NCBI GenBank assembly: GCA_963735035.1 | Contig: CAVTJJ010000003.1 | Span: 925,191-989,190, forward strand | Direction: 5' to 3' | DNA from: an uncultured candidate division Zixibacteria bacterium | GTDB taxonomy: Bacteria; Zixibacteria; MSB-5A5; GN15; FEB-12 | Length of the DNA: 64,000 nt | Shown here: positions 6,516 to 26,670 of the stretch, in pieces | Numbering within the stretch: position 1 is the first letter of the stretch | How the letters are laid out: each line of letters opens with the position of its first letter | Made by a program: the position numbers and the translations under genes | Notes under the pieces: model-generated | Told to the model about the DNA's origin: nothing | What the model saw: the letters and a program-made list of their open reading frames with translations, nothing else | Databases searched by the model: none

Positions 6516-6569
6516 GACAATTTCCTTTTAGGGTTTCACCTGTCTCTGACAGCGTACAACAACGTGGAT

Positions 6570-7607: not shown

Positions 7608-8014
7608 TCCTCGCGTACCTAATGATTACCGATCGGTTCTTTCTTGCGGCTGCAATATCATGGATGAGTAAGCGCTTGACCAAGCAAAAAGAGACTGAGT
7701 GGTATCAATTCCGTCGCCATTCACACTTGATATCGTTCACCGGGAGGGAGACGGAAAATCTTCACATTGATTTGCGCCCTGCCCCTGTGTAACCATCAAT
7801 AACTTCTAATGTGGGATGCAACAACGCCTTATGTCTTTGTCTGTTTGCGCATGGTCATGTCTGTCACGACGAATGATGCTCTCTAGACGGATGCAAGAAC
7901 CTCCCTGTGTGGCCTAATTGTGACAGTTTTGGTTAGCATTTGTGCAGAGTTATGTCTGTGTCACCCTCCCAGCCGCCATTTCCCTTGTTTGACTTCCTGG
8001 GTTGGCAACCTTGA

Positions 8015-8356: not shown

Positions 8357-8588
8357 TGCGTTTCTCCTGTCTGATTTCTTGCACCGGGGGAATATACAAG
8401 AACCCGCGTCCACAGACTACGACTACACGAGCTTGACCTCGCTCGAATTGGGTTCGAACCTGCAAGCAACTGGCAGTAGGGGATCGCCCCGACGCGCATT
8501 GTGGCACAATGGCTTACGGCTCATCGTGATCAAGTCATGACCGCTCGCAAACTGAGAAACTGGTGTATTCGGACCTGGCAGAAAAGAG

Positions 8589-8622
8589 CAGAGGGCCGGT
8601 AGACAATGCCACCTGCCCTCTG
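8589..8622 (-). terminator. Rho-independent terminator of the S8 protease gene
   Basis: CAGAGGGC...GCCCTCTG stem followed on the minus strand by CTCTTTTC. Confidence 0.55.
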
Positions 8623-8645
8623 TTTGTACTCTCTCGCTTATCGTA

Positions 8646-10739: not shown

Positions 10740-10776
10740 GGGTCTTATCCTTTCGGTTTATGTTCTTCTGGACATA

Positions 10777-10803
10777 AGTACCGCAGGACCCTCTGTTGTT
10801 ACA
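10777..10803 (-). promoter_or_regulatory. ECF-type promoter copy 1 (upstream of S8 protease)
   Basis: TGTAAC-AACAGAGGGTCCTGCG-GTACT. Confidence 0.7.
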
Positions 10804-11097
10804 GAGATGCCGGAAGATACTGACCACCCCGAGAACGACGGTCAATCGTCATTGAAGACGGCCTTCTCAGACCCCGGCAGGCCGACGGGGGGACAGTTTG
10901 CTTGGCTGCGCGTGGCTGTGCCCGGCTCATCTGCCAGATACCGCTTTGGAAAACGAGAAAGTAATAATGAAGCCTGAATGACCGATCGGACTCCCTCTGC
11001 GTGTCAATTGAAAGAAGATCTGGAATCCGTTTATCAGACTTGAGATTTGGACAAATAGTAAGCTCGCCGCCGCTGGATTTCAGTGCTACGACAACTG

Positions 11098-11955
11098 CTA
11101 TCTATCTGTTACAAGCCTAAACGAGAATGAACTCTCATTTACATTGAGCGAATCGGCGAAGCTCTTTTCTGCCACCACAAATTGGTACGATCCATCAATG
11201 ATGTTCTTTGTATCCAGGATTAGCTGAATTTTGCCCGGTACACTGTAATTGGCGAAGAGTGTGATCGGTGCTCTTTCGCGTTTCCCGGAATCAAAAAGTG
11301 AGTACTCATAACGATTCTCACTCGATAGATGATAAAATGGCAGGTCCATGCGAACCAGAGCATCACGTTCTGTTCGCGTGACCGTAGGCACGTCGGATGA
11401 TGAGCGATTCGCCTCAAGAAGTTGGAATACCTGAACGGGCACTGACTTATTATCACCGCTCGGTGCATGACCATTCGAATCGGTGAACCATCTGACGGTG
11501 GGATATGCAGCAAGCAGGAGAAGAAAGTACGCTACTGCCGGTTTGCGTAGAGGAATCACAATGTAATTCAGAACGGTCTGCCATATCGGAGCGCGATTAA
11601 GTTCCGACCTAACCGAGGCAGAGAGTTCCGTTTCAAGATCGTTCAAGAAAGCCAGATCGTAAGCGCACTTCTCGCAACTCTTCAGATGAGCTTCAATACG
11701 GCTTCGAACTTCGGGTGACAGACCGTGTCGGTTCTCATGATAGGAGGATACATCCTCTTGAGAAAGGTGACCCGCATGACCTGAAGAATTGGCTTCTGTG
11801 GCCGGCTTCTTGAGCATCCGCATGACCTTCAAGCTGTCCCGACACTCCACGCAGGCATCCAGGTGCCGCTTGACTTCCTGCGTCTCGGCCGGATCAAGAT
11901 GGCCCGTGGCAAAGTCATTCAGCTTGAGCCGGATATTTTCATCTAAGCATTTCAT
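11098..11955 (-). CDS. Zinc-binding anti-sigma factor with two zf-HC2 motifs, one TM helix and an extracytoplasmic domain
   Basis: HLDACVEC and HLKSCEKC motifs; hydrophobic AVAYFLLLLAAYP; directly downstream of the ECF sigma gene. Confidence 0.85.
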   Translation of the reverse strand: MKCLDENIRLKLNDFATGHLDPAETQEVKRHLDACVECRDSLKVMRMLKKPATEANSSGHAGHLSQEDVSSYHENRHGLSPEVRSRIEAHLKSCEKCAYDLAFLNDLETELSASVRSELNRAPIWQTVLNYIVIPLRKPAVAYFLLLLAAYPTVRWFTDSNGHAPSGDNKSVPVQVFQLLEANRSSSDVPTVTRTERDALVRMDLPFYHLSSENRYEYSLFDSGKRERAPITLFANYSVPGKIQLILDTKNIIDGSYQFVVAEKSFADSLNVNESSFSFRLVTDR

Positions 11956-11971
11956 GTGTCACCAACACAGA

Positions 11972-11998
11972 GGTGCCATCAGGCACCCGCCTGTTACA
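11972..11998 (-). promoter_or_regulatory. ECF-type promoter copy 2 (overlaps the sigma stop codon, upstream of anti-sigma)
   Basis: TGTAAC-AGGCGGGTGCCTGATG-GCACC. Confidence 0.55.
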
Positions 11999-12548
11999 GC
12001 AATTCTTTGACAAAATCCAGGTTTCTTGCCCGATCCAGACACCTAGAGATGGCGGTGCTGGTGGCGTTTTTGGTCTTCTTGAGGTGATCGGCTATTTCCC
12101 GATCCGACCATCCCTGCCGAAACTTCATGTCCAACAATTGGTTACACTTAGGGTCCAGGGCCATAAGAATATCCGTTGCCAGTTGACCATCGACCACTTG
12201 ATCGTCGGTCGCAACGCCTTTCGATTCGACATAGTCCAGCGGATCGTCAGTATAACTCACTCTAGCGCTTAATCTTAACCGCCTATTGATGCGGAATCTG
12301 ATGGTCTGGTAGATATAGACGTTGAATGCCGACAGCGTGTCGCCCCTGAATCGGCTTGCCCGCAAGCTGTCGAAGAGGATTTCGATCACTTCGGAGACGA
12401 TCTCTTCAGGATCTGTGTCCGAAGGTACCCCCTGGTGATACACGTACTGAGTGATCTTCTTCTTTATGATCGTGAACTGGCGACTGTCGCCCTTCAGAAA
12501 ACCGTCTACAACTAGTGTGAGTAATTGCTTGTCGTGATCGGTCTGCAT
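11994..12548 (-). CDS. ECF-type RNA polymerase sigma factor
   Basis: 184 aa; region 2 DPEEIVSEV...FNVYIYQTIR; region 4 LDPKCNQLL.MKF.QGWSDREIADHL...AISRC. Confidence 0.88.
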   Translation of the reverse strand: MQTDHDKQLLTLVVDGFLKGDSRQFTIIKKKITQYVYHQGVPSDTDPEEIVSEVIEILFDSLRASRFRGDTLSAFNVYIYQTIRFRINRRLRLSARVSYTDDPLDYVESKGVATDDQVVDGQLATDILMALDPKCNQLLDMKFRQGWSDREIADHLKKTKNATSTAISRCLDRARNLDFVKELL

Positions 12549-12700
12549 CTACGCCTCGACAAGGTACAATGCCTTCCGCCTGCCTGTTGTCTACTCTTTT
12601 GGAAGAGCGGTCCTGTCCCCAGAGTATAGTGGGCATCATACTCAACCACAATAACTTTCTCTGATTCGCGCCCGGCATACCTGCCATCGAGTTGAGACCA

Positions 12701-12727
12701 TGTAACAAAAAACTTCGAGCATGCACT
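12701..12727 (+). promoter_or_regulatory. ECF-type promoter copy 3
   Basis: TGTAAC-AAAAAACTTCGAGCAT-GCACT. Confidence 0.7.
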
Positions 12728-12965
12728 TATGATCGGTAGGAAGATTGAAACCACAGGACGAGAAGAAGCCCGGCTGATAACTATGGGAACTTAGACCGAA
12801 AATTGACCACAAACCGTGCGACCCGCCGAATTCTGCTCTCCGACTGAGCGGGGGGATGCCCGCTCCCACCTTAGAGGTGGTCATGGTGCGCCCGGCCTCT
12901 CTTGAATGAGACGGCCGGGCGCCTCCATTTTGGTTGGGTAAGATTCGCTGCGGGGTTCAAAACCG

Positions 12966-12992
12966 TGTAACAAAAGACCGGACCCTGGCACT
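12966..12992 (+). promoter_or_regulatory. ECF-type promoter copy 4 (upstream of the fibre/dockerin/CHAT operon)
   Basis: TGTAAC-AAAAGACCGGACCCTG-GCACT. Confidence 0.72.
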
Positions 12993-13049
12993 GATAGTCA
13001 GATACAAGATAACCGGTCGATGCCCCCGGAGTGTGTACTCCCGCGGATG

Positions 13050-13077
13050 TTGACAAAGAAAGAAGTTTGCATATATT
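13050..13077 (+). promoter_or_regulatory. Sigma70-type promoter candidate
   Basis: TTGACA-N16-TATATT. Confidence 0.5.
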
Positions 13078-13247
13078 TGTAAGAGGTACTACTCAACTGG
13101 AAATCATTGCCAACCATTGATAATGCAGCCCGCGTAAGGTGACAGCAGCAAATTGGCTGTGCGTCTGAGACCCCTCGGGCAATTTGGCAATACGCGTTCC
13201 GCCACAACGAAAACGAGTTGAACAAAATACAGAGGAGAAAGCGAAAT

Positions 13248-14488
13248 ATGCGCCCTACGCAGCTATTGCTTACGGCAATCATGGCGGCAACATTTCTGGT
13301 CCTTACGGGCTCGTTGTTTGCCGATCCGGTTCCTGAATACCAGAGAATACCGGAAAGTTTCACTGTCCAGGGATTCGCACTCGATAGCGCGGGATTCCCG
13401 ATTCCCGATGGCGTCTATCCTGTCACGTTCACTACCTACCATGACTCTTTATGTTCGGTTCCGGTATACACAGAGACACAATCGCTCGAGATCCAGGGCG
13501 GAAGGTTTGGTTCAATTGTCTTTGGACTGAATGGCATCGGCCCCTGGCCTCGTCCATTCCATCCGACAATTGACATTTATCCGTCTCGGTACCTAAAGAT
13601 ATCTATTGATGGTCAGGACATCCTGCCAATTATAGAGTTGCAGTCAGCTCCGACAGCTGTGATGGCTAGGCAGTGTTCGAGGCGATATCTTCACTTACGA
13701 AGGGGGGACGATATTCGCCAACCAGAATCTGGATTCGTCCGGGTATGTTAAGATCGACGGTGGCGCAGATAGTTCGTCGATCGGGCTGTTCAGTCCGGGT
13801 GCAGCTGATCCAAGCGTGCTACTTTCAAACCCGAGCTCGGGGGCACCGTCTCTGACAATGGGGGAGTCCTCCGGGGGTGCAATGCATACTATGACCATGG
13901 GACCCTCGGGCATAACGTTCGCATATTCACCAAGTTGGCCGGCAGGCTGGGATACTACACTCATCTTTTCCGGTGACAAGTTGACGTGCGCCGATACAAT
14001 TAGTTCAACCTCGGGGGGATTTCAGTTCCCGGATGGCACCGTTCAGACAACAGCCGCTGGTTCAGGAGGCGGCCCGTGGGAGACTTCCGGCTTGAATGTT
14101 TACGTCGATACCTCAGGTATTGACGATTACAGTGTTGGAGTAAATACGGCCACGCCCAATAGCCCGCTTCAGGTGGCAATGGTGCCGTTGCAACGGCTTT
14201 ACGAACCTTGTTGGAGCACAATTGTGACGCCTGACATCTGATCACTCCGTCGTACTTGTTTCTCCAAACGCCGGTCCAATAACGATCAGTCTGCCGACTG
14301 CGGCCGGCATAAGCGGCCGACAATACACTATCAAGAGGTCTGCCCTCGGCCCCGCTAACAGCGTCACCATTGACGCCTTGGCTCTGAATACATCGACGGC
14401 AGCCTATCATACTCCCTATCGGCGCAGTGGTAAGTACGTGGTGTTGGTTAGCAACGGTTCTTACTGGTGGGTCATTGGCAACAACTAA
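13248..14488 (+). pseudogene. Secreted fibre-like protein broken by several frameshifts (sequencing error or decay)
   Basis: GAGGAG RBS and signal peptide; N-domain IPESFTVQG..LDSAGFP..DG.Y.VTF..Y; then GGFQFPDGTVQTTA, VGVNTATPNSPLQV and, in shifting frames, ITISLPTAAGISGRQYTIKR and KYVVLVSNGSYWWVIGNN*. Confidence 0.65.
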
Positions 14489-14507
14489 GACAAGGCGAAG
14501 TAGTAAG

Positions 14508-15198
14508 ATGAAACAGTTAGACTTATTAGTCGTGAGCGTCGCCGCAGTCTTGTTGCTTCTTCTTGCCTGGAGCCTGGCCACAGGTGAGAGTCAGATTGAA
14601 CGCGACAGACAGCCGAGCGAAATAGCCGAAGCTCGCTTACTGCCGGCACATGATACGTCCACAAGTTCAGATCGGAACGGAGCCGTAAGCTCCAGTGTGA
14701 ATTCAGAGATCAGCCACCCACCTGCTTCCCTTCTCACCGTCGGGCCAAAACCTCGCGGAGTCGCGAGTGCGTCCGACATCTCCATTGATTGGTGGGTGGT
14801 GGCCGCGGGAGCGGTCGACGGCAGAGGACAATCCCTTCATCTACTCGCAACAATCGGTCAGGGTGTGATTGGAGAAGGTGCGTCAAGCAAGTATCTGTTG
14901 CGTTACGGATACTGGGCTGCGTCGAACGGCGCTGGTGGTTGTTGCCAGGGTCGGGTGGGCGATGTCAACCAGTCAGGTAACGACGAGCCTACTATCGGCG
15001 ACATTTCTACTTTGATCGACGCCAAGTTCATAACCGGGTCGTGCGACGGGGTGATTTCGTGTTTTGCCGAAGCTGATATCAATCAGTCCGGCGGTCCTAA
15101 CCCGACCTGTAATGACATCACGATTGGCGACATTTCTATCCTGATCGACTACTCTGTTCATTACGGGGCCTTCGCTTGGGCTTCATAACTGCCTGTAG
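14508..15198 (+). CDS. Secreted protein with a short beta module and a C-terminal dockerin-like domain; 1-nt frameshift near 15150
   Basis: CCQGRVGDVNQSGNDEPTIGDISTLIDAKFI...EADINQSGG...ITIGDISILIDY. Removing one base restores LFITGPSLGLHNCL*, matching the paralog at 61298-61837. Confidence 0.8.
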
Positions 15199-15286
15199 AT
15201 ATTGCGGCTGATTCAAAGGCTAGTCCCAGAATTCTGATTGTTGTTGCACGACAGCTCGGCTTGCTTAAATTACCTGCTATATCAGG

Positions 15287-18200
15287 ATGATTGGCTGCGT
15301 AATCGCATCGAAATCGAGCTCCGCCGTGCTAAGACGCATCTCACAAATCTCATGCCTCATAATCTGCACTCTTGTCGCGTCAATTAGCGCGGCTCCGGAA
15401 ACGGAGAAGTTGCTGACAACTGCTGACTCTCTCTTCGCGATCCAGATGTTGGACTCAGCTATTTCAGTCGGAAAAACGGCCCTGATTGCTGCCGAGCGCG
15501 ACCCGCGGTCGCCCGATTCCGTAATCGCCTCCATACACTACCTGCTCGGACTGAGTCATCTCTACAAGTCCGACTTGAATGAGGCCGTTAGTCATCTCGA
15601 TTCCAGCAGAATTACCCGAGTAACCGTGTACGGTGAAGATCATCCTCTCGTGGCGGATTGCGACTATTATCTCGGCGCCGCTCTAATGCAATTCGGCCAG
15701 TTTGATCTAGCCGAACAACACTATGCCAAAGCGCTGTCTGTCCGAGAGGCTGCCTACGGACCCGACCATGAGCAGGTGGCCGCCACCCTCGTAGGATACT
15801 CGTCGCTTTATGCCTACATGGGTCGCTATGACCGAACGGAAATGCTAGTCCAGCGTTTGCTCGGGATCCAGGAGAGAAATCCGAATATTCCCACGGCACA
15901 GGTCGTGAAAGCGCTGATCCTCCTGGCCGGAGTTAAGCTGGACTCCGGCCGATTTAGGGACGCAGAACAATATTACCGTCGCGCCCTGACCCTCTTGGAG
16001 AATACTTCAACGACCGACGCGTTTACCGAAGGTTCAGTACATTGGGGGCTGGGAAAAGCACTTCTGTTGCAGGGTGATCTGCCACAGGCGGAGAGTCATT
16101 ACTTGAAAGCCATTGATCTGACCCGCGCCACTCAGGGCGAAGGCAGCTACCAGATCGGGGCTCTGAAATCGGAATTGGGGCGTCTCTACACCATGCGCCT
16201 TCAGTACTCCGAGGCTGAAACTCTCCTGACTGAGGCGCTCTCCCAGCTGCGCGCATCCATTGGTGAAGACAATGAATTCGTGGCCTATTGCCATCAATGG
16301 CTTTCCCGGATCTACGCGTATCAGGGAAGATACGCGATGGCGCAGCGGACCGCCGAAGAAGCTGTCAAGTCAGCCGGAGCTACCTTCGGAAGAGACCATC
16401 ACGAAACTGCTCAGGTGATGAACTGGCTGGCGGAAGTTCACTTAATGGCAGGCAATTACCAAATTGCCGATTCGATCGCTACCGCGGCCACGGCCATCAT
16501 AGTCAGTGAGCTCGGCGAGACCCACCCATATCTCGTCGATGGTTTCAACATTATCGGGTATGCCAGGATGCAACTCGGCGACATGATAAGCGCCGCCAAG
16601 TACTTTGAAAGGTCTCTCGCAATCGGTCTGGCGGCAGGCGGCCAAAATCATCCCTCGGTCGCGGCCACTTATGAGGTCCTTAGCGAACTGCGCCGCCGTA
16701 CAGGTGAACGGGAACTGGCGCTTGACATGTCGCGCCGGGCGGTACTGGGTCGTCGAAATAATCTGCGTCTGGGGTGTGCCGTCATGTCCGAGCAGGAGGC
16801 TTTAGACTATGCCTTTCTGGTCAAGCGTGCCCTGAACCTTTACTTGTCCTCTCTGCGCGACTTGCCCAACCCGAATCCTGAAATTGCAAAGGCCGCTGCC
16901 GAGTTGATCGCCAATACCAAGGGACTGGTGACCGACGAAATGTTGCTGCGATCATCTTCGCTTCGCACTGACACAAGTTCAGCAGAGAAAGTCTTGAAGG
17001 ACACCGTTGATGCGGCCCGGTTCGAATTGGCTTCGCTGTTCGGCAACTTTTCCAGTGAAGTTGACCAGTCCACCTACCGAAGCAGGCTTGATTCCTTGTC
17101 GAGCCATGTGCAGGCCCTGGAGGCACGACTCGCCCGCCAGGTAACTTCGGATGTTGGCCTCCGTACTAGCGATTCAATCAGTATTGACCGATTGCAAAAA
17201 GAACTGAAACCTGATCAGGTGGCCGTCGAATACCTCCGATACACCTATAAAGATCCGCGAAACCAGAATGCGGAAGATCGATACCTGGTGCTGTTATTGA
17301 ATCCCGCTTCCGAGACCCGTGTAATTGACTTGGGAACCGCGGAACTGATTGATAAAGCTGTGGGTCGTTACCGGAAGCACATATCTGACCTCGCCGCCGC
17401 CGGGCAACCTCCCGACCAAGAAGCCCTTGACGATTATCGCCGGCTTGCCGGAGATCTCTATACTACTGTATGGCGTCCCCTGGAACCATACCTGGGTGCG
17501 AGCCGGATGATCTTCATCTCGACTGATGGATCTCTGAATCTGTTGTCATTTGCGGGCCTTCCTTGCTCCGATAATGAATACCTGATTGAAAAATACCGCC
17601 TTCACTACTTGTCCACTTCGCGCGATCTTTGTCGCTCCCCCCATCAGAGTGCCACCGGGCGCAGTCTGGTACTAATCGGGGACCCGGATTTTGGCCTCGC
17701 AGTTCAGCCAAGCCAGGTGGACCCGGAATCGGGTTCATCGGTCGACCCAGCTCTCGGGTGTGGCAGCATTGATCGCAGTCGTCTATCGCCGTTGCCGGGA
17801 ACTCGCCGCGAGGTAGAACGAATCGCTCGTCTGTGGCGACAGCAGGTTTCGGACAGCGTTACCGAGTTGACAGGCGCAGGAGCCACAGAAGGTGCTTTCA
17901 GAAAATTAGCTCCGTCAGCCACCACCGTTCACATCGCTACTCATGGGTACCTGGCCGCCGATAGCTGCTTCAGGATCGAAGCTTCCGCACCGAGTCTGGC
18001 CAATGAAGATTTCTTTACCCGCAACCCGCTTTTGCTTTCCGGCTTGTTCCTGGCAGGAGCGGCCGCGCCGGGAAAGTCCCGGGTTCGTTTTGATAGCCGC
18101 GATGGGATGCTCTCTGCCGAGGAAGTGGCCACCTTGGACCTTCACAAAGTTGGACGGGTGGTACTATCGGCCTGTGAATCGGGGCTTGGAACGGTGGAAT

Positions 18201-18457
18201 CCGGCGAGGGTGTCTATGGCCTGAGAAGGGCTTTTCAAATGGCCGGTGCCGGCACGGTCATCAGTTCACTCTGGAAGGTCCCGGACAACACTACGGCTCA
18301 GTTCATGGCGCGGTTGTATTCGACTGACAACGAGCCTGTCCCGGCAGCCATGCAATCGTCTTGCCTCGACATGCTGTCCCAACTACGCCGTCGTGGCCAG
18401 CCGGACCATCCATTTCTATGGGCTCCGTTCATAAGTATCGGTGACTGGCGGGAGTAG
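15287..18457 (+). CDS. TPR-repeat CHAT (caspase-like) protease with N-terminal hydrophobic/signal segment
   Basis: Multiple TPRs (HPLVA, HEQVA, HPSVA); catalytic VHIATHG and VVLSACESG; SLWKV.D; HPFLWAPF. Confidence 0.93.
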   Translation: MIGCVIASKSSSAVLRRISQISCLIICTLVASISAAPETEKLLTTADSLFAIQMLDSAISVGKTALIAAERDPRSPDSVIASIHYLLGLSHLYKSDLNEAVSHLDSSRITRVTVYGEDHPLVADCDYYLGAALMQFGQFDLAEQHYAKALSVREAAYGPDHEQVAATLVGYSSLYAYMGRYDRTEMLVQRLLGIQERNPNIPTAQVVKALILLAGVKLDSGRFRDAEQYYRRALTLLENTSTTDAFTEGSVHWGLGKALLLQGDLPQAESHYLKAIDLTRATQGEGSYQIGALKSELGRLYTMRLQYSEAETLLTEALSQLRASIGEDNEFVAYCHQWLSRIYAYQGRYAMAQRTAEEAVKSAGATFGRDHHETAQVMNWLAEVHLMAGNYQIADSIATAATAIIVSELGETHPYLVDGFNIIGYARMQLGDMISAAKYFERSLAIGLAAGGQNHPSVAATYEVLSELRRRTGERELALDMSRRAVLGRRNNLRLGCAVMSEQEALDYAFLVKRALNLYLSSLRDLPNPNPEIAKAAAELIANTKGLVTDEMLLRSSSLRTDTSSAEKVLKDTVDAARFELASLFGNFSSEVDQSTYRSRLDSLSSHVQALEARLARQVTSDVGLRTSDSISIDRLQKELKPDQVAVEYLRYTYKDPRNQNAEDRYLVLLLNPASETRVIDLGTAELIDKAVGRYRKHISDLAAAGQPPDQEALDDYRRLAGDLYTTVWRPLEPYLGASRMIFISTDGSLNLLSFAGLPCSDNEYLIEKYRLHYLSTSRDLCRSPHQSATGRSLVLIGDPDFGLAVQPSQVDPESGSSVDPALGCGSIDRSRLSPLPGTRREVERIARLWRQQVSDSVTELTGAGATEGAFRKLAPSATTVHIATHGYLAADSCFRIEASAPSLANEDFFTRNPLLLSGLFLAGAAAPGKSRVRFDSRDGMLSAEEVATLDLHKVGRVVLSACESGLGTVESGEGVYGLRRAFQMAGAGTVISSLWKVPDNTTAQFMARLYSTDNEPVPAAMQSSCLDMLSQLRRRGQPDHPFLWAPFISIGDWRE

Positions 18458-18476
18458 GAGCGTCTGATGTGATTTA

Positions 18477-19568
18477 TCATTGTGCCGCCGCCACGGCTTC
18501 CAACAGTTGAGTGATTACCGGCGTCTCGAACGGCTCAAGGCCCTGTTCCTTTTCTATCAGGTAGGTACACAGCGGCTTTACATCGCCATTGGCATGATAC
18601 CGATGAGGAGCCATAGGCACACCGCTTCGGCATAGTAGCAGATACCGACATTCACGGCACCATCGATTCACTGAATCACGATGCATCTTGCGGTTATACG
18701 CAAAGGCATCAGGGTTATTCCAGATATCGGCGATGGGGGTAACGCGGATATTCCCTTCGATGAATTCATCAGTCATCTCTGCGGCACCTTTCACTTCACC
18801 GGATGGTCCAACCGCCAGGTAGTGTACTCCGGATCCATCGCCCAAAAACGGGCGGCCCCCGCGCAGTTTCATTCCCTTAGTTCCATAGTGGCCTATCTCA
18901 TCGGTCGCGCTAATTGTGATGCGAGTATCGCTCTGCATTTCAATGATCTTATCAATCATCGTGGTGTATTCTTCCCTGGTCAGGACCATGTCTGCATGGG
19001 AGGCCATGCGGCCGGTTGGCTGAATCATTTGAATGCGCCAGTCTGCACACCCGGCATCGATTAGCGCACTTTTGATAGCCTCAAGCCGATCGAGGTTCAT
19101 TCTGGAAACAGCCGTAACTGCCGCAACCTTCAGACCGGGCACAGAACTGGCGAGCTTGATTGCCGCCATCGCCCGATCATACGCATCTGGACAACAGCGG
19201 ATCATATTGTGTGTCTCGCGGTCTCCATCGACACTGATGCCTAGTGAGTTAACTCCAGCGTCGACAAGTGACTGGAGTCGAGACGGTGACAGCAAGAGAC
19301 CATTGGTTATCAAACCTATACGCGCCTCTTTGCTTGATATATACTTGATAACCTCAATAAGGTCCGGACGTATCAATGGTTCACCGCCGGTCAAACAGAA
19401 CTGGCGACAACCGAGGTCAAGAAGATCGTCGATCATCATCTTGGCCTCCGCCGTGGTCAGTTCATCTGATCTGGGCTTGGCGGACGCATTGCCGCAATGC
19501 TTGCATCGTAAGTTGCAGCCGCGTGTAACTTCCCACACTGCAACAGTTAGCTTGAAATCTGAGTTCAT
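18477..19568 (-). CDS. Radical SAM protein with a degenerate SPASM domain (candidate peptide maturase)
   Basis: CNLRCKHC, TGGEP, ITNG, ISVDG; C-terminal GNIR..DIW, CRECRYLLLC...PLC. Likely start MNSDF follows GAAAGGAAG. Confidence 0.9.
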   Translation of the reverse strand: MNSDFKLTVAVWEVTRGCNLRCKHCGNASAKPRSDELTTAEAKMMIDDLLDLGCRQFCLTGGEPLIRPDLIEVIKYISSKEARIGLITNGLLLSPSRLQSLVDAGVNSLGISVDGDRETHNMIRCCPDAYDRAMAAIKLASSVPGLKVAAVTAVSRMNLDRLEAIKSALIDAGCADWRIQMIQPTGRMASHADMVLTREEYTTMIDKIIEMQSDTRITISATDEIGHYGTKGMKLRGGRPFLGDGSGVHYLAVGPSGEVKGAAEMTDEFIEGNIRVTPIADIWNNPDAFAYNRKMHRDSVNRWCRECRYLLLCRSGVPMAPHRYHANGDVKPLCTYLIEKEQGLEPFETPVITQLLEAVAAAQ

Positions 19569-19590
19569 TGTCTTCCTTTCGAGTGAGAAT

Positions 19591-19613
19591 AGGGGGCAGA
19601 GGATCTGCCCCCT
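19591..19613 (-). terminator. 10-bp hairpin between the peptide gene and the radical SAM gene
   Basis: AGGGGGCAGA-TCC-TCTGCCCCCT, with no strong U-tract. Confidence 0.6.
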
Positions 19614-19620
19614 CGGCAGA

Positions 19621-19710
19621 CTAGAGTATGATCCAAGGTCTCGGTATGAGGATGTGCAGAATATTGAGACCCGCATTGATGATAGTGGTTGAGGTAATGA
19701 TCGGGATCAT
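19621..19710 (-). CDS. 29-aa peptide MIPIITSTTIINAGLNILHILIPRPWIIL; candidate RiPP precursor
   Basis: AAGGAG (19718-19723) lies 7 nt before the ATG; TAG at 19621-19623; sits between ECF promoter copy 5 and the radical SAM gene; too short for the ORF track. Confidence 0.65.
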   Translation of the reverse strand: MIPIITSTTIINAGLNILHILIPRPWIIL

Positions 19711-19768
19711 GGCGTTGCTCCTTGTTTGAGTTGTTGGTTATGTTGGTTTTCGTTTTCATTTGTCCATT

Positions 19769-19795
19769 AGTGCCACCTACCCTCCGGTTGTTACA
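19769..19795 (-). promoter_or_regulatory. ECF-type promoter copy 5 (upstream of peptide and radical SAM)
   Basis: TGTAAC-AACCGGAGGGTAGGTG-GCACT. Confidence 0.72.
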
Positions 19796-19976
19796 GACTT
19801 CCTGCTCACCTTCTAATTATGCGTAACTTATTGTGTATCAACAGAAACCGCCCACGAGAGGGATAAGCGCCTTCGGGTGCTCTGGCTTACCGCCAGTATC
19901 AAGGTTATCGATGGCCAGCCCGACCAGCCGCGTTTGTTACAGCCTTTCACATAGGATTCCCCCGGAAACGAAGAGA

Positions 19977-20000
19977 GGTCGCCCCCGAATGGGGGCGACC
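19977..20000 (-). terminator. Terminator of the FN3 lipoprotein gene
   Basis: GGTCGCCCCC-4nt-GGGGGCGACC, then pyrimidine-rich TCTCTTCGTTT on the minus strand. Confidence 0.6.
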
Positions 20001-20038
20001 CGTTGATGAAGTCTATCGATTCTTTATGTAGAACCGCA

Positions 20039-20773
20039 CTATTGCACGGTAATCTCGACTGTGTTACTGACCGGTGACTCCCCGGCAGCGTTCAATGCGA
20101 CCACCCGGTACCGATACTTTCCACCTAGAACCACACTGCGATCCGTGGCTACGACGGCATCTATTGCAGCTTCATGCGTCAGAGCGGTCCATCCCCCAAA
20201 TCTGGACGATAACGAGTTCCAAACGGCGCGATCGATACGAAAACCGGACTCACACTCCGAGTTGTCGTTCCATTTGAGGATAACACCGTAGCCGATAGCT
20301 GGGAATCTGTCCGGCCTCAGAATCGCAGCAGTCAAACCGTCGGGCGCAACCGGGACGGCCCAATTGCATATACTTGCTTCGTTCGAGAACTCAGAGGCGC
20401 CCACATCATTGATCGCGCGTACCCGGAAATCGTAGCCAAAGAATGAAGGCGCATTAACGGTGCATTCAGTAGAGTCGGGATCGACTGTGGTAATTCGTTC
20501 CCAGCTTAACGGATGCTCGGGGATAGCGAGACCACCAAGGCGCTGAATCTCGAAACCGGTCTCATTGTAGGAATTATCGCTCCAGGTGATGTGAGCGGTC
20601 GTCTCAGAAACACGGGTGGCGACCAGGGTCGATGGCGCAGCCGGCACTATGACAGGCGGGTTGGGTTCGGGGCGGGGATCCGGTTCAGGCGCGACTGAAT
20701 TGTCGGAGCAGGACATCATCGCAACTCCTAGCGTCAGCACAACACAAGCAGTGATAAACATTCTCTGGAACAT
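20039..20773 (-). CDS. Lipoprotein with two fibronectin type III domains
   Basis: Lipobox-like VAMMSC and Pro-rich linker; two repeats of AP..L.A...W.DNS..E.GF.I.R...YRV.A.N..G.S..SN. Confidence 0.88.
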   Translation of the reverse strand: MFQRMFITACVVLTLGVAMMSCSDNSVAPEPDPRPEPNPPVIVPAAPSTLVATRVSETTAHITWSDNSYNETGFEIQRLGGLAIPEHPLSWERITTVDPDSTECTVNAPSFFGYDFRVRAINDVGASEFSNEASICNWAVPVAPDGLTAAILRPDRFPAIGYGVILKWNDNSECESGFRIDRAVWNSLSSRFGGWTALTHEAAIDAVVATDRSVVLGGKYRYRVVALNAAGESPVSNTVEITVQ

Positions 20774-20820
20774 AATAGCCTCCTTTGTTTGGTTGATTCC
20801 AGTTTCATTTTCTGATCATC

Positions 20821-20847
20821 AGTGCCCCGAGCGCCTTGTTTGTTACA
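20821..20847 (-). promoter_or_regulatory. ECF-type promoter copy 6 (upstream of FN3 lipoprotein)
   Basis: TGTAAC-AAACAAGGCGCTCGGG-GCACT. Confidence 0.72.
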
Positions 20848-21021
20848 GTTCTCCCTGAAGTTGTGCGCGTATCCGATACAAGATCACTGCTGACCGAGAT
20901 CAGGACCAAGAGACAGCAGCAGAAATACATCGGAACGCTGGTTACTGACAGGGAAAGCATCTAATCCCCTGCGCGCGCTTGATTGGATTGATTCGTGACA
21001 GACCAGAAATACTAAAGCACC

Positions 21022-21074
21022 AGCGGCAGGTCACTTCATGGTTTGAACTAAGTTCACCATGAAGGCCTGCCGCT
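21022..21074 (-). terminator. Long hairpin downstream of the 21091-21705 gene
   Basis: AGCGGCAGG..CTTCATGGT.TGAACT / AGTTCA.CCATGAAG.CCTGCCGCT. Confidence 0.5.
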
Positions 21075-21090
21075 TGGCGTGACGAGATAT

Positions 21091-21705
21091 TTAGTATTTT
21101 GTGAAGGACCCCATCAACGAGCTGATTTGTCGATCCGAAGACGACAACTCGGCCATCGAGTAAAATCCGTTCGAACAGAAGAAGGCGATCGCGCGTTTAC
21201 CGTTACCGGGACCAATGAAAGTACCATAGTAACCATAGACTTGCTCGGATTCTGTCGTATAAGCACCGATACCTCCGCCGTTCCAAAGCAGGGCGGCGTC
21301 AGGTTCTTTGTAATAAGTAAAATTGCCGTTGGCATCGAAGGTGAGTTGTCTTAGACCTGATTCCACGCTGTTGCCAATCTTGCCGTCGCCGGTATAACTC
21401 TTGTCGCCCCCGGTCACGTATTGTCCACTCAAACCACCAATAGTAACCACATAGCTCACCCCGGTGCCGTCGTGTGAAACGGTGAAGCTGTTGGGTCCAC
21501 TCTGCGTGACAGTTACTTGAGCTCCGGTGAAGTCCCAAATGAGTTTCGCGCCGCCACTTTGTGCTCCGGACGCTCCACCGCTCCCGGTACCGCCGCTTCC
21601 GTAGGGACTTTGAGCTTGTGAGTGCCCTGCAACAAACAGAGATGATCCTAGAAAAACTGCGAACACCGCGAGAAGTGCCCCTGAGTTAACAATTGACGTA
21701 TTCAT
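21091..21705 (-). CDS. Hypothetical exported protein with Gly/Ser linker and beta-rich domain
   Basis: AAGGAG RBS, signal peptide ending SQA-Q, GSGGTGSGGASG linker. Confidence 0.75.
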   Translation of the reverse strand: MNTSIVNSGALLAVFAVFLGSSLFVAGHSQAQSPYGSGGTGSGGASGAQSGGAKLIWDFTGAQVTVTQSGPNSFTVSHDGTGVSYVVTIGGLSGQYVTGGDKSYTGDGKIGNSVESGLRQLTFDANGNFTYYKEPDAALLWNGGGIGAYTTESEQVYGYYGTFIGPGNGKRAIAFFCSNGFYSMAELSSSDRQISSLMGSFTKY

Positions 21706-21746
21706 TCTTGTTTCTCCTTTGACTCATGTTCTTTGCTCTGCCCAGG

Positions 21747-21773
21747 AGTGCCGAGTCGACCGGTTCTGTTACA
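21747..21773 (-). promoter_or_regulatory. ECF-type promoter copy 7
   Basis: TGTAAC-AGAACCGGTCGACTCG-GCACT. Confidence 0.72.
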
Positions 21774-22045
21774 ATCCGGCTGCAGGTTCCGGCTGACAGA
21801 GGAGATTGTAGTAGTGCCGGGGGACGGTGGACTTGTAACTCAAGCGGGAGAAGAAGTAAGAAATTCAACGCACCCCTCGTGCCACAGCATCTTGTTGCGA
21901 GACAATAGCGTGAAAGCGAGAAGGACGGAGTTGCTGGCTCGCGGGGTGGGCACAATAGCTTGAGAGTCTTTGCCACCAAGTCTTGACCGTTTGTTTCAGT
22001 CAATTGGGGACCTGCGAAGTAGTGCAAACAGCCCCTCTTGTATCC

Positions 22046-22070
22046 TTTATACATTCTTTATATCCGCGCC
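22046..22070 (+). promoter_or_regulatory. KdpE binding site candidate
   Basis: TTTATACATTCTTTATATCCGCGCC upstream of kdpF, resembling the T-rich E. coli KdpE box. Confidence 0.6.
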
Positions 22071-22194
22071 CTTCTTCCTTATTCACCCAGATTGTGAAAC
22101 TCGCCGTTCTTATTCGACAGGTGGCGGTGTCATCCCGGCTACCCCAACCCTGATGCTGCAGTTCGCCCCTCGATTTGAAATAGAAAGGAATGCC

Positions 22195-22281
22195 ATGTCG
22201 TTTGCGTTTGCGGGCATCATAGCTCTGGCGCTATTGGCCTATCTCGTATACGCCGTGTTCAATCCGGAGAGATTCAAGTGA
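22195..22281 (+). CDS. kdpF: K+-transporting ATPase subunit F
   Basis: MSFAFAGIIALALLAYLVYAVFNPERFK with the typical YL..A...PE.F motif, directly before kdpA. Confidence 0.9.
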   Translation: MSFAFAGIIALALLAYLVYAVFNPERFK

Positions 22282-22290
22282 GGTCGCCTA

Positions 22291-23982
22291 ATGTCCACTA
22301 ATGATCTTCTCCAGGTTCTGGTCTACATCATAGCGCTGGTCACCGTGGCTCCCCTGTTAGGCGCTTTCCTGGCACGGGTCTTTACAGACCGGCCACACCC
22401 GCTCAAGCTTGCCCTCGGGTGGTTAGAGAAGGGTATCTACAAGTTTGGTCGCATAGATAGTAACAGCGAGATGAATTGGAAAGATTACGCCAGGTCACTG
22501 CTATGGCTCAACGGTCTTGGATTTGTCTTTCTTTTTGTTCTGCAGATTTGTCAGCAGTGGCTTCCACTTAATCCACAGCACTTGCCAAATGTCGGATGGC
22601 CGCTGGCATTCAACACCGCTGTCAGTTTCGTTACCAACACGAATTGGCAATCCTATGCCGGAGAGACTACGCTCAGTTATCTGACCCAAATGATCGGTCT
22701 GACCGTGCAGAATTTTGTCAGTGCCGCCACGGGAATTGCTGTGTTTCTCGCCCTGACACGTGGAATTATTCGGAAGACAACTGACAAGATCGGAAACTTC
22801 TGGGTCGATGTAACGCGCTCGATTGTCTATGTCCTGCTGCCGCTTTCTTTGCTTCTTGGGATCGTGTTAGTCGGCGAGGGCGTGGTGCAGACTTTCTCGC
22901 CTGCTGCCACCGTGACCACCGTAGAAGGTCCGGCGCAGACTATTCCGCTTGGTCCGGCCGCATCCCAGATTGCCATAAAGCAGTTAGGTACCAATGGCGG
23001 CGGCTTCTTCAATGCCAACAGCGCTCATCCACTGGAGAATCCCACGCCAATATCAAATTTCCTTCAGATGCTGGCCATTTTGCTCATCCCGGCAGCTCTA
23101 ACTTTCACTTATGGCAGGCTAGTGGGCAATCGCAAGCACGGGTGGGTCATTTTCGCCACCATGTTTGTGCTTTGGTTTGCCGGATTGTCACTCTCACTCT
23201 ACGGTGAGTATTCTGCCAACCCGGCCCTGGGATTGCAGACTAATATGGAAGGAAAAGAAGTTCGGTTTGGCATCACGAACAGCATCATTTGGTCTTCTGC
23301 CACCACTGCCGCCTCGAACGGCTCCGTCAACGCTATGCACTCGAGTCTCACACCTTTGGCGGGCGGCGTAGCTCTTTTCAATATCATGTTGGGTGAGATC
23401 ATATTCGGCGGAGTCGGCGCCGGCATGTACGGCTTCTTGCTGTACGTTCTTATGACCGTCTTTCTTGCCGGATTGATGGTAGGTCGCACGCCGGAGTATC
23501 TGGGCAAGAAAGTCGAGGCACATGAGATTCAGATGACCATTGTGGGGATTCTGGCTCCTAACACCGTCATCCTCATTGGCGCTGGGCTTGCCTGCGTCCT
23601 GCCGATCGCGCTGGCAGGTCTGGCCAACCAGGGACCGCACGGTCTAAGCGAGATACTGTACGCCTTCTCCTCAGCGGCCGGCAACAATGGCAGTGCCTTT
23701 GCCGGACTGAACGCTAATACCAATTTCTATAACATCACCCTGGGCGTGGCGATGCTCATAGGCCGTTTTGCAATCATCCTGCCCTGCCTGGCAATCGCAG
23801 GTCACTTGGCCGGCAAGAAACGGTCACCTCTGTCGGCCGGCACGTTTGCGACCGATAACACAACCTTCGCCGTGCTCCTAATTGGCGTGATTCTAATCGT
23901 CGGCGCGCTTACTTTTCTTCCTGCGCTGGGATTGGGTCCGATAGTCGAACACTTGTTAATGCTGTCCGGACGAACCTTCTGA
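22291..23982 (+). CDS. kdpA: K+-transporting ATPase subunit A
   Basis: [39 protein letters not shown]. Confidence 0.98.
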
Positions 23983-23990
23983 GGGAACCT

Positions 23991-26087
23991 ATGGCTGAAT
24001 CGGTTTCAGGACTCTTCAACAGAGCTTTGCTGGGGTTTGCGATCCGGGCGTCCCTCAAGAAGCTAAATCCGCGTGACCAGGTTCGAAATCCGGTCATGTT
24101 TGTGGCCTACGTTGGTGCCATCCTCACCTCCATATCGTTCGCTGCCGGCTGGATTCAGGGATCATGGTCCGGATTTGAATTCCAGATTAGTCTCTGGCTT
24201 TGGTTCACCGTCCTATTTGCCAATTTCGCGGAATCGATGGCTGAGGGACGTGGCAAAGCCCAGGCCGACAGCCTGAAACGAGCGCGCAGCGAGACGTTCG
24301 CTCGTCTTCTCAAGTCAGGTCGGGAAGAACGCACCGCGGCCACTCTGCTGCAAAGAGGAGACGAGGTCGTCTGCGAGGCAGGAGATATCATACCGTCAGA
24401 TGGCGAAGTGATCGAGGGAATCGCCAGCGTCGATGAATCGGCCATCACCGGCGAATCAGCCCCGGTCATACGTGAAAGCGGTGGCGACCGGAGCGCTGTA
24501 ACCGGCGGAACGCGAGTAATCAGCGATCGGATCGTCATTCTAATCACTTCCGAGCCCGGCAATACCTTTGTCGATCGTATGATCGAACTGATCGAAGGAG
24601 CAAAACGCCACAAGACCCCGAACGAAATCGCACTCGGCATTGTCCTGGCCGGACTGACTATTGTCTTCTTGCTGGCCGTCGCGACGCTGAAATTCTTTGC
24701 CGATTACAGCGGCACGTCCGCGGGACAGGATCTAAGCAAGATAGTAACCGTTACCGTGCTAGTGTCTCTGCTTGTTTGCCTCATTCCTACCACAATTGGC
24801 GCACTTCTGAGTGCTATTGGGATAGCCGGCATTGACCGGCTTGTCCAGCGAAACGTAATCGCCAAGAGCGGTCGCGCGGTTGAGGCCGCGGGTGATATCG
24901 ACGTACTCTTGCTCGATAAGACCGGGACGATCACTTTGGGCAATCGAATGGCTACCGATTTCGCACCAGCAGAAATGATACCGGTGCAGAACCTGGCGGA
25001 AACGGCTCAATTGGCGTCGTTGGCTGATGAGACTCCGGAAGGTCGTTCTATCGTCATTCTGGCTAAGGATCGCTACGGGTTTCGTGCGCAGACTCTCACG
25101 CCGAGCCAGGCGCGGTTCGTGCCCTTTACCGCACAGACTCGTATTAGTGGTGTCGACATACTCGAACCCGACGGTTCGATCGCAATGAGCATCCGCAAAG
25201 GAGCGGTTGATTCCATGCGCGAGCATCTGCTGCGGCATGGTGGCAGTTTTCCCGATGAATTAGAATCGATTCAAAGCGAGATCGCGCGTTCCGGCGGAAC
25301 ACCACTGGCCGTCAGCATCGACAATCAGGCGATTGGAATTGTGCAACTCAAGGATGTGGTCAAGGGCGGTATCAAGGAACGGTTCGCCCAACTGCGCAGG
25401 ATGGGCATTCGCACGGTTATGGTGACAGGGGATAATCCGCTCACCGCGGCGGCCATAGCGGCCGAGGCGGGGGTCGATGATTTTATCGCGCAGGCGACAC
25501 CAGAAGCCAAATTGGAGCGAATTCGAGAGGAACAGCGCGCCGGTCATCTGGTTGCCATGACGGGCGACGGCACCAATGACGCTCCAGCCCTTGCCCAGGC
25601 CGACGTCGGCGTTGCAATGAATACAGGTACTCAGGCGGCACGCGAAGCAGGCAACATGGTGGATCTCGACAGTAATCCGACGAAACTGATTCAGATTGTG
25701 GAAATCGGGAAACAGCTGCTAATGACCCGCGGCTCACTGACTACCTTTAGTATCGCCAACGATGTGGCCAAGTATTTTGCGATCCTTCCGGCAATGTTCG
25801 GAACGCTCTATGCGATGTCCGGCTCAAGTACCGGTCCGTTGGCCGCCATGAATATCATGCATCTTCACTCGCCGGAGAGCGCCATACTCAGCGCAGTAAT
25901 CTTCAACGCGCTGATAATTGTCGCCTTGATTCCCCTGTCACTGCGTGGCGTGACCTATCGACCGGAAAGCGCCGAGAGACTCTTGCGTCGCAATCTGCTG
26001 CTCTACGGCCTCGGAGGTATTGTTTCGCCGTTCATAGGTATTAAGCTAATTGACCTTCTGCTGGTGGCCGGCCGACTCGCAAACTAA
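23991..26087 (+). CDS. kdpB: K+-transporting ATPase subunit B
   Basis: [29 protein letters not shown]. Confidence 0.98.
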
Positions 26088-26097
26088 GGTAGACTCT

Positions 26098-26670
26098 GTG
26101 CGAACAATAATGACAGCCCTGAAGACACTAATCGTGTTGACGCTCTTGACCGGAGTTGTCTATCCGCTCCTGGTAACGGTGGTCGGTTATCTCTGCTTTC
26201 CGCATCAGGCCTCGGGCAGCCTGCTGGTAGTGAACGGGAGACCTGTTGGCTCAAACCTTGTCGGGCAGAAGTTCACCGATTCAAGTTACTTCTGGCCGCG
26301 TCCTTCCACCATCGACTATGATCCACTACCCTCCGGCGGAAGTAATTTGGGACCGACCAGCGACGCGCTTAAAGACAGCATTTCGTCGCGACGAAACAGA
26401 CTCGCGCAAACCGGAAATGGGGCAGTCCCGATTGATCTGCTCTGCGCCTCGGCCAGCGGCCTGGACCCGGATATATCACCCGAAGCGGCTCTTTTTCAGG
26501 CTGACCGCGTGGCGCGGGCAAGACGACTTGACCAGGCACAAAAAACCGCGCTTCTTTCACTTGTAGAGAGACATACCGAATACCCCAACATAGGGATATT
26601 CGGTCAGCCGAGAATAAATGTACTCAGGTTGAATCTCGCTTTGGACTCACTGATAAAGGCGTCGTCGTGA
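26098..26670 (+). CDS. kdpC: K+-transporting ATPase subunit C
   Basis: YPLLVT, GQKFT..YFWPRPS, SASGLDPDISP, INVLRLNLALD; start at GTG 26098 or ATG 26110. Confidence 0.95.
   Translation: MRTIMTALKTLIVLTLLTGVVYPLLVTVVGYLCFPHQASGSLLVVNGRPVGSNLVGQKFTDSSYFWPRPSTIDYDPLPSGGSNLGPTSDALKDSISSRRNRLAQTGNGAVPIDLLCASASGLDPDISPEAALFQADRVARARRLDQAQKTALLSLVERHTEYPNIGIFGQPRINVLRLNLALDSLIKASS

Follow-up and report, generated by a model that had tools for sequence, protein, structure and literature searches.

Organization of the locus

The window analyzed here, a 64,000-nt stretch from the genome of an uncultured candidate division Zixibacteria bacterium (contig CAVTJJ010000003.1, positions 925,191 to 989,190), contains a candidate precursor peptide gene, i.e., an Ile-rich open reading frame (ORF) of 29 codons, directly upstream of, and on the same strand as, a gene for an orphan enzyme of the radical S-adenosylmethionine (rSAM)/SPASM type (Table 1). 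All elements from the promoter motif to the rSAM gene are read on the minus strand, and positions are those of the window. The halves of a motif of the type recognized by extracytoplasmic function (ECF) sigma factors, TGTAACA (19795-19789) and GCACT (19772-19768), lie 16 nt apart, and an A/C-rich stretch of 44 nt separates the latter from the Shine–Dalgarno sequence of the ORF. The ORF product consists of 29 aa, 10 of which are Ile and three Thr; it has no Cys, one His, and one Trp. A GC-rich hairpin and the ribosome-binding site (RBS) of the rSAM gene occupy the 52 nt between the ORF stop and the rSAM ATG, in which neither a promoter motif nor a called terminator was found; the rSAM start is 227 nt from the promoter motif. 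All parts that a sequence-only reading had described at this site (promoter motif, AAGGAG, the ORF and its translation, the 10-bp hairpin, the RBS, and the rSAM gene) are present. That reading had also called the peptide gene unannotated, which is wrong: the exact 29-aa sequence is part of a collection of 15 billion proteins (sources NCBI and ENA), where it forms a singleton cluster, and it must therefore have been called earlier by some gene caller.

Composition and codon usage of the 29-codon ORF

In composition and frame, the ORF is beyond what chance would produce. Triplets of the form ATH, which encode Ile, are locked to its frame (10/1/0 for the three frames), and nine or more Ile were reached in a fraction of 3.5e-5 of 200,000 shuffles. 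Among the 10,535 ATG-initiated ORFs of 25-35 aa in the genome, it ranks first in Ile content, the runner-up having 8 Ile. The codon score of the ORF (+0.31 bits per codon) falls within the top 1.9% of 6,375 small ORFs and compares with 0.26 (sd 0.17) for real genes read in frame and −0.65 for those read off frame, whereas the other two frames over the same stretch score −0.18 and −0.55. This score is mostly due to ATC codons and, thus, not independent of the Ile count. Across the genome, 138 of the 201 AAGGAG-N5-9-ATG sites start ORFs of at least 100 codons, versus 8 of 57 for the control hexamer CTCCTT. Together with the regulon-type layout described below, the frame-locked Ile triplets, the top Ile rank, and the gene-like codon use show that the ORF is not random. 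A paralogue of the peptide, or of the leader DNA, was not found in the genome itself.

Another frame was considered as the coding one and set aside as the less likely. It comprises 64 codons (19759-19565, minus strand), is rich in His, Asp, and Tyr, overlaps the 29-codon ORF, starts at about the expected transcription start, and shares an ATGA overlap with the rSAM start; it has no RBS, its codon score is −0.18, and its product is not in the protein collection. The change seen in the related strain (see below) would replace a His by Arg in this frame. Clustering of GATC in the ORF (four sites in ∼110 nt) also turned out to be ordinary, the genome having 6.6 such sites per kb and ∼1,160 windows with at least four.

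The intergenic hairpin

Within the leader, the only strong structure is the hairpin between ORF and rSAM gene (19613-19591; −20.0 kcal/mol in a 40-nt window). The leader as a whole does not fold better than shuffled sequences (z −0.77; 44 of 200 shuffles equal or better), and no match was obtained when window positions 10000-24000 were scanned with Rfam at E ≤ 1. The hairpin lacks a U-run (4 U in the 8 nt of its tail) and is not called as a terminator. Its arms carry the GGCAGA/TCTGCC core of a hairpin repeat family with 258 copies in the genome, compared with 4-8 for control cores, and at least two main sequence types; by sequence, it looks like a shortened copy of the second type, which resembles repetitive extragenic palindromic (REP) elements. 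Two further pairings are conceivable: the 5′ arm contains GGCAGA, with which TCTGCC directly past the ORF stop could form an alternative helix of 6 bp, and in the minimum-energy fold, 4 nt past the ORF stop pair with AGAC just ahead of the rSAM ATG.

The enzyme is related to the second maturase of a peptide cassette

The 363-aa enzyme matches Pfam Radical_SAM (E 4.5e-27) and SPASM (E 3.2e-6) and, otherwise, only Fer4_12. None of the NCBIfam models matched it at cut-off. The best sub-threshold match was TIGR04133 (rSAM_w_lipo; 193 bits, cut-off 425), and further scores were obtained with the models for the GDL-motif-peptide maturase (179), the nif11-class maturase 3 (170), and AhbD (169.7; cut-off 500). 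The AlphaFold2 model of the enzyme has a predicted local distance difference test (pLDDT) score of 92.3, and the structures closest to it are those of SkfB, PqqE, CteB, BlsE, SuiB, and anSME.

Homologues of the enzyme that have a source name are mostly labeled Zixibacteria. In all 12 loci holding homologues of 40-44% identity, the gene directly follows that of another rSAM enzyme of ∼450 aa. One of these loci (L022, G000:C2:62000-74000) lies in the same genome as the orphan enzyme and contains three tandem ORFs for Cys-containing precursors, each with a GGAGG site and each followed by a hairpin, then the two rSAM genes and one for an ABC exporter (Table 1). The L022 precursors had no NCBIfam match, and the best match of its first enzyme, rSAM1, was the Clo7bot maturase model, again below threshold (344 bits, cut-off 600). 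Precursors of the same family were present in 9 of the 11 relatives' loci, with 1-5 copies each; the pattern was not found in loci L023 and L028. The resulting 24 peptides (own cluster included) comprise 31-42 aa and begin with M-I-[YF]-L-[IV]-D-P; each has two to four Cys, and P-[LM]-Y-G-[IV] is found toward the C-terminus. A profile made from them scores the three own-genome precursors with E 7e-15 to 7e-12. Of the 24 precursors, 13 have a hairpin of −18 kcal/mol or stronger behind them, compared with 10.7% of 150 random windows. Because its relatives sit in peptide cassettes together with an rSAM partner, the orphan enzyme is considered a lone, diverged copy of a peptide maturase; judged by sequence relationships, it is a species-restricted paralogue (∼40% identity) of the second maturase in this Zixibacteria cluster.

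Loss of the ligands for one auxiliary cluster

When the enzyme was aligned with 69 homologues, all seven cysteines expected for two of the clusters proved to be kept, i.e., those of the CX3CX2C motif (C18/C22/C25) and the ligands of auxiliary cluster II (AuxII; C304/C307/C313/C334). In contrast, three positions that are Cys in 69 of the 69 homologues are occupied by D244, A262, and V317, and the enzyme has three cysteines of its own, C58, C125, and C126, which are Cys in none of the 69. By spacing (C-x17-C plus the last Cys of the C-x2-C-x5-C-x3-C run), and following the assignments for Methanosarcina barkeri AhbD and anSME in the sections consulted of PMC10452713 and PMC6231123, the lost positions correspond to the ligands of auxiliary cluster I (AuxI) and the kept ones to those of AuxII. 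As described in the corresponding part of PMC6231123, the canonical SPASM domain has the seven-Cys motif CX9-15GX4C…CX2CX5CX3C…C and two auxiliary clusters; in the truncated version called the Twitch domain, AuxI alone is retained. The orphan enzyme has a full-length C-terminal domain from which the AuxI ligands are gone while those of AuxII are present, and is thus neither a canonical SPASM nor a Twitch enzyme.

AuxI is the cluster nearest the active site, and with its loss, the enzyme probably no longer makes Cys thioethers. Cys is present in every precursor of the family but absent from the candidate peptide, and enzyme and peptide may therefore have moved away from thioether chemistry together. 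Which chemistry could have taken its place is narrowed by the loss of AuxI, and to name epimerization or a Trp/His crosslink is a guess; by analogy with EpeE (see below), we favor a redox-neutral change such as epimerization and consider the crosslink less likely.

Variation in a related strain

One DNA sequencing run, X1, yielded short contigs that are 92-98% identical to parts of the region (depth ∼3-fold, the pieces possibly stemming from more than one strain). Four of these pieces differ from the window at 47 positions, 31 of which are listed; 30 of the listed ones lie inside the rSAM gene, where 24 are synonymous and the other six alter the protein, with A262 and V317 unchanged. The predominance of synonymous changes, and the retention of these two residues, indicate that purifying selection acts on the enzyme in its AuxI-less form. 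In the piece that spans the rSAM start, the hairpin, and the complete ORF, there are five differences over 249 nt and no indels, so that the ORF is intact; the other two pieces of the rSAM gene have 23 differences in 281 nt and 9 in 191 nt. Conservation of the ORF stretch thus exceeds that of the synonymous sites in the rSAM gene. This speaks against a leader free of constraint, irrespective of whether the constraint acts at the protein or the RNA level.

A putative ECF-type regulon

The sequence CTGTAACAA occurs four times in the window, where 0.19 copies are expected, and none of 100 shuffles reached four. The fuller form TGTAACA-N15-17-G[CT]ACT has seven copies in the 3.6-Mb genome, and six of them are located between 10.8 and 21.8 kb of the window (Table 1). 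The same region encodes a divergent 184-aa protein, presumably the reader of the shared motif, for which Pfam Sigma70_r2 and r4 matches were sub-threshold (E 0.017-0.07) and no significant match was found among PDB sequences; language-model features (Atlas) put it beside clusters of the sigma-70 family (0.98; 194 of 256 features shared). A zf-HC2 anti-sigma factor is encoded next to it. From the motif copies, the sigma-like factor, and the anti-sigma factor, we infer an ECF-type regulon. A common layout recurs at the 29-codon ORF and at the genes for the S8 peptidase, the FN3 lipoprotein, and the 204-aa protein: the promoter motif, an A-rich leader of ∼30-50 nt, an AAGGAG-type site, 5-8 nt, and ATG. 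All other regulon products have an N-terminal hydrophobic segment that, by eye, was judged an export signal, and the S8 peptidase additionally carries a secretion-system sorting domain. The S8 or the CHAT protease had been put forward as possible processing enzymes or receptor for the peptide; co-regulation is the sole link to processing, and both have the export-signal-like N-terminal segment.

Table 1. Features of the two-gene unit, the surrounding regulon, and the cassette L022 of the same genome. Positions refer to the window, those of L022 to that locus.
Feature	Position	Strand	Remarks
Candidate ECF-type promoter motif, TGTAACA-N16-GCACT	19768..19795	−	One of six clustered copies; promoter role putative
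Shine–Dalgarno sequence AAGGAG	19718..19723	−	7 nt ahead of the ORF ATG at 19710
Ile-rich 29-codon ORF, protein P0121, candidate precursor peptide	19621..19710	−	TAG stop 19623-19621
GC-rich hairpin	19591..19613	−	10-bp stem, 3-nt loop, without U-run; begins 7 nt past the ORF stop
RBS of the rSAM gene, AAAGGAAG	19572..19579	−	Read from sequence
Orphan rSAM/SPASM enzyme, 363 aa	18477..19568	−	ATG 19568; Pfam Radical_SAM and SPASM
Putative promoter copy	20820..20847	−	Ahead of the FN3 lipoprotein gene, 20039-20773
Putative promoter copy	10776..10803	−	Ahead of the S8 peptidase gene, 8646-10739
Putative promoter copy	21746..21773	−	Ahead of the gene for a 204-aa protein, 21091-21705; signal-like N-terminus
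Putative promoter copy	12966..12993	+	Ahead of the plus-strand genes 13218-18457, TPR-CHAT gene last
Putative promoter copy	12701	+	Ahead of a short unit ending in a hairpin
Divergent sigma-70/ECF-like factor, 184 aa	11994..12548	−	Presumed reader of the shared motif
zf-HC2 anti-sigma factor	11098..11955	−	Pfam PF13490, E 9e-12
GGCAGA…TCTGCC hairpin repeats, examples	40144-40181, 50083-50128, 55027-55072, 59018-59055		
L022 precursors	4783-4887, 5094-5189, 5368-5469		31-34 aa, Cys-containing
L022 rSAM1	5571-6926		
L022 rSAM2	6923-8065		
L022 ABC exporter	8114-9904		

Neighboring genes

The plus-strand genes 13218-18457 probably form one operon, judging from their spacing. The TPR-CHAT gene at its end (stop at 18457) and the rSAM gene (stop at 18477) are convergent, with 19 nt between the stop codons. 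No terminator was called in this gap (18457-18477), and the two transcripts would collide or overlap. The TPR-CHAT protein had no match at E ≤ 1e-30 in either of two genomes of the same genus. When 20 kb of DNA were compared with these two genomes, a repeated C-terminal domain and short stretches near 8650-8910 matched, and nothing else. The repeated domain is encoded by the 3′ end (14934-15200) of a 253-codon gene (14427-15188, plus strand); it consists of D-x-N-Q-S-G-type repeats that look dockerin-like by eye, and repeats of this type are also found at 61621-61793. It matches 40 places in one of the same-genus genomes and 24 in the other (66-78% DNA identity) and is thus a widely shared C-terminal module.

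Downstream of the motif copy at 12701, a strong hairpin (12888-12922) with a T-rich tail follows after ∼190 nt, just before the copy at 12966. Nine ORFs of at least 20 aa (21 to 106 aa, on both strands) are listed across 12701-12935; the unit might specify a small RNA under control of the sigma factor, or else a very short gene. The island is adjoined by an ordinary kdp operon for potassium uptake (22291-30052, plus strand), of which kdpA, kdpB, and kdpD were scanned; kdpC is probable, and an ORF of 230 aa is next.

Is the peptide a substrate of the enzyme?

From the anatomy of the locus, the coding signal, the family relationship of the enzyme, and its cysteine pattern, we infer that the 29-codon ORF is a translated gene and that its product is the substrate of the downstream rSAM enzyme, the two forming a pair akin to those of ribosomally synthesized and posttranslationally modified peptides (RiPPs) with a chemistry other than thioether formation. 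This reading, the likeliest single one, is tentative, and we put its probability at roughly 0.45. Prediction of the enzyme–peptide complex lends it weak support: the score was 0.33, compared with 0.01 for the best of three controls. The mark applied to such complexes is reached by 116 of 157 solved complexes and by 2 of 215 mismatched pairs, and at scores of 0.60 or under, by 18 of the 157 solved complexes and by both of the mismatches that pass; the peptide is shorter than anything in this calibration set. An own 70-row alignment was the input for the complex; at least 52% of contacts are common to the runs, and the partner has a pLDDT of 47 or more. Of the earlier proposal that the ORF encodes a RiPP-like substrate, the layout, the peptide-maturase relatives, the coding signal, and the weak complex are in favor. 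The peptide does not match the precursors of the paralogous family: when 30,470 small ORFs were searched with the profile of the 24 precursors, the 29-aa ORF was missed at a limit as permissive as E ≤ 1000.

Besides this miss, a number of results weigh against a substrate role. Some concern the ORF itself. The number of 20-39-codon ORFs behind AAGGAG (14) is close to that behind the control CTCCTT (11), and with a crude intergenic filter, which masked the target itself, six small ORFs were obtained, the controls giving 6, 5, and 3. Because G is rare in the leader, stop codons are scarce, and all three of its frames are open, for 38, 83, and 409 codons. When the peptide was compared with 285 genomes of the phylum, the best non-self E was 0.107, which is at chance level; of the 33 non-self matches, seven loci were inspected, and none of these was beside an rSAM homologue. 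Among sequencing runs, none of RNA matched window positions 18400-20900, the only match being the DNA run X1 (0.06 of words). The sole change listed for the ORF in X1 is non-synonymous (Ile22 to Val), and no synonymous one is listed. Others concern the enzyme. Among 5.8 billion proteins, no orthologue was found: the best non-self identity was 43-44%, with 621 matches at E ≤ 1e-30. The 41 related genomes, two of them of the same genus, also contained no orthologue and only homologues of 40-44% identity, as does the own genome with one. Scans of contigs gave one weak locus in genome contigs and seven loci in metagenome contigs (23-32% identity). The CX3CX2C motif starts at residue 18, and there is no N-terminal RiPP recognition element (RRE) ahead of it; nor does the two-gene unit encode a PqqD-like protein, an exporter, or a protease.

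Many of these points would also be expected if the ORF were not functional, i.e., if it were part of a long 5′ leader with RNA-level or regulatory constraint, or the remnant of a lost first gene, its frame being open by accident. The G-poor leader with its three open frames, the failure of short ORFs to be commoner behind AAGGAG than behind control hexamers, and the lack of a peptide homologue in the searches made all fit this explanation, as does the resemblance of the hairpin to REP-like repeats with 258 copies of the shared core; that the stretch has changed less in X1 than have the synonymous sites of the rSAM gene would fit constraint at the nucleotide rather than the protein level. It is hard to square, however, with the 10/1/0 distribution of ATH triplets and the first rank among 10,535 ORFs in Ile content, which base composition does not explain, nor with codon use that is gene-like in the ORF frame and in neither of the others. 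Ribosomes should bind the leader, as it is unpaired and has a strong AAGGAG at the optimal distance from the ATG, and it shows neither an Rfam match nor a fold better than that of shuffles. We regard a nonfunctional ORF as unlikely, if a serious contender. Were the peptide not the substrate, the locus would amount to an ordinary orphan rSAM gene with a long leader.

The coding signal backs translation and is silent on what the peptide does; the ORF might be translated without its product being a substrate. It could encode a small hydrophobic membrane peptide, which is consistent with a single basic residue (Arg24), no acidic one, and 15 codons with T in second position among a total of 30 (counting the stop). 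Alternatively, it could be an upstream ORF that, when translated, disrupts both the hairpin and the weak base pairing that covers the RBS of the rSAM gene; the 4 nt past the ORF stop that pair with AGAC in the minimum-energy fold would suit the latter. The rSAM enzyme would then act elsewhere, e.g., on a co-regulated exported protein before its export, as anSME does on sulfatases. All other regulon products look exported by eye, the enzyme has no recognition domain, and its best NCBIfam match is TIGR04133, a family that we take to be paired with lipoproteins, with an FN3 lipoprotein gene directly upstream. That lipoprotein gene, however, comes with a promoter copy and a terminator of its own, and its product matches no NCBIfam family; the nearest relatives of the enzyme adjoin short peptide genes; the predicted complex weakly backs contact between peptide and enzyme; and loss of AuxI beside a Cys-free peptide would have to be a coincidence. 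On balance, a translated peptide that is not the substrate is improbable. Far more so is the alternative offered by the sequence-only reading, namely, that the ORF is the leader of an Ile/Thr-sensing attenuator, in which ribosomes stalled at Ile codons would free TCTGCC to bind the hairpin's 5′ arm, so that transcription is not terminated before the rSAM gene. The 10 Ile and three Thr codons among 29, the hairpin directly after them, and the complementarity of TCTGCC to GGCAGA are as this model would have it. Yet, the hairpin, which lacks a U-run, is not called as a terminator, the sole alternative pairing has 6 bp against a 10-bp stem of −20 kcal/mol, and Ile codons occur all along the ORF instead of being bunched before the structure. 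The next gene is a paralogue of rSAM peptide maturases and not one for amino-acid biosynthesis, transport, or tRNA charging, and the promoter belongs to a regulon of exported-looking proteins. Poorly supported as it is, attenuation would come as a considerable surprise.

Proposed mechanism and implications

If the peptide is the substrate of the enzyme, the system might operate as follows. The divergent ECF-like sigma factor would turn on six neighboring promoters, one of which yields the two-gene transcript, and ribosomes would load on its unstructured A/C-rich leader at AAGGAG-7 nt-ATG to make the peptide. By analogy to intercistronic REP elements and RiPP operons, the REP-like GC hairpin past the stop likely protects the upstream message or causes leaky termination, either of which would leave the peptide in excess over the enzyme. 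The enzyme, putatively descended from the second maturase of the Zixibacteria thioether-type peptide cluster by loss of AuxI, would act on an aliphatic peptide residue by hydrogen abstraction, resulting in a redox-neutral change, e.g., epimerization of Ile or Thr, with a Cys thiol as the hydrogen donor; a C–C crosslink to Trp26 or His19 is the less likely outcome. One could go further and envisage a Cys-free, Ile/Thr/Leu-rich 29-mer, induced via the ECF factor (by envelope stress), that receives D-residues at multiple sites from an AuxII-only rSAM enzyme using the extra cysteines as donors, the product being membrane-active, of mixed D/L configuration, and the founder of a new peptide class. 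Gramicidin and the polytheonamides are membrane-active D/L peptides of this sort. This extended version is a long shot; if it were true, the enzyme would be the first peptide maturase known to work without AuxI.

The pair, if real, would represent a variant of the rSAM–peptide theme in which the SPASM enzyme lacks AuxI, the Ile-rich substrate lacks Cys, control is of the ECF type, and occurrence is confined to a single species. It would provide a compact two-gene system (29 aa and 363 aa) to probe how a SPASM enzyme functions without the auxiliary cluster proximal to the active site, the more so because the role of the auxiliary clusters is described as unsettled for SkfB, CteB, and AhbD in the relevant parts of PMC6231123 and PMC10452713. 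The pair would also connect a modified peptide with a regulon of the ECF type in which all other products have the look of exported proteins. We know of no other link between a modified peptide and an ECF regulon, a matter on which no search was made.

Comparison with known systems

Attenuator leaders of ilv and thr operons likewise consist of a short Ile/Thr-rich ORF and a hairpin behind it, but they have what the present locus lacks, a U-run, a strong antiterminator, and a downstream gene for amino-acid biosynthesis. Among rSAM enzymes of known structure, SkfB, PqqE, CteB, and SuiB resemble the model of the orphan enzyme (Foldseek E 5e-18 to 5e-13; TM-score 0.64-0.69, normalized to the query); in contrast to it, all of them bind AuxI, and their sequence identity to it is 13-21%. 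SkfB, CteB, and SuiB have an N-terminal RRE, whereas PqqE acts on a short peptide without a fused recognition domain and needs PqqD.

For the chemistry, the EpeX/EpeE (YydF/YydG) pair of Bacillus subtilis may serve as a model: EpeE has one auxiliary cluster and acts on the Cα of Val and Ile in a small ribosomal peptide, with a Cys thiol as hydrogen donor, as described in the portion of PMC13012085 consulted. The analogy is a mechanistic one, epimerization by the orphan enzyme being conjectural. The cluster of EpeE resides in an extended Twitch domain; in domains of this type, according to the corresponding section of PMC6231123, AuxI is retained, which is the cluster that the orphan enzyme has lost; the epipeptide cluster, moreover, also encodes a protease and an ABC transporter. 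The sole natural parallel found for the loss of AuxI ligands is AhbD of non-methanogenic archaea, in which, as stated in the pertinent part of PMC10452713, the three AuxI cysteines are replaced by Glu, Ser, and Ser while AuxII is kept; in the orphan enzyme, Asp, Ala, and Val take their place. Unlike AhbD, the orphan enzyme scores far below the cut-off of the AhbD model, has no heme-pathway neighbors, and has peptide maturases as its nearest relatives.

The closest comparison is with the two-rSAM cassettes of Zixibacteria. The enzyme is ∼40% identical to their rSAM2, the precursors are of similar length (31-42 aa versus 29 aa for the ORF product), the RBS is strong in both cases, and a GC hairpin follows the ORF as it does 13 of the 24 precursors. 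The orphan pair differs in that it has neither an rSAM1 partner nor an exporter and stands under an ECF-type promoter, and in that the peptide is without M-I-[YF]-L-[IV]-D-P, Cys, and P-[LM]-Y-G-[IV], and the enzyme without the three AuxI cysteines. If the peptide is indeed the substrate, a maturase paralogue would thus have diverged along with its substrate, and the ancestral cassette in the same genome would offer a natural before-and-after comparison.

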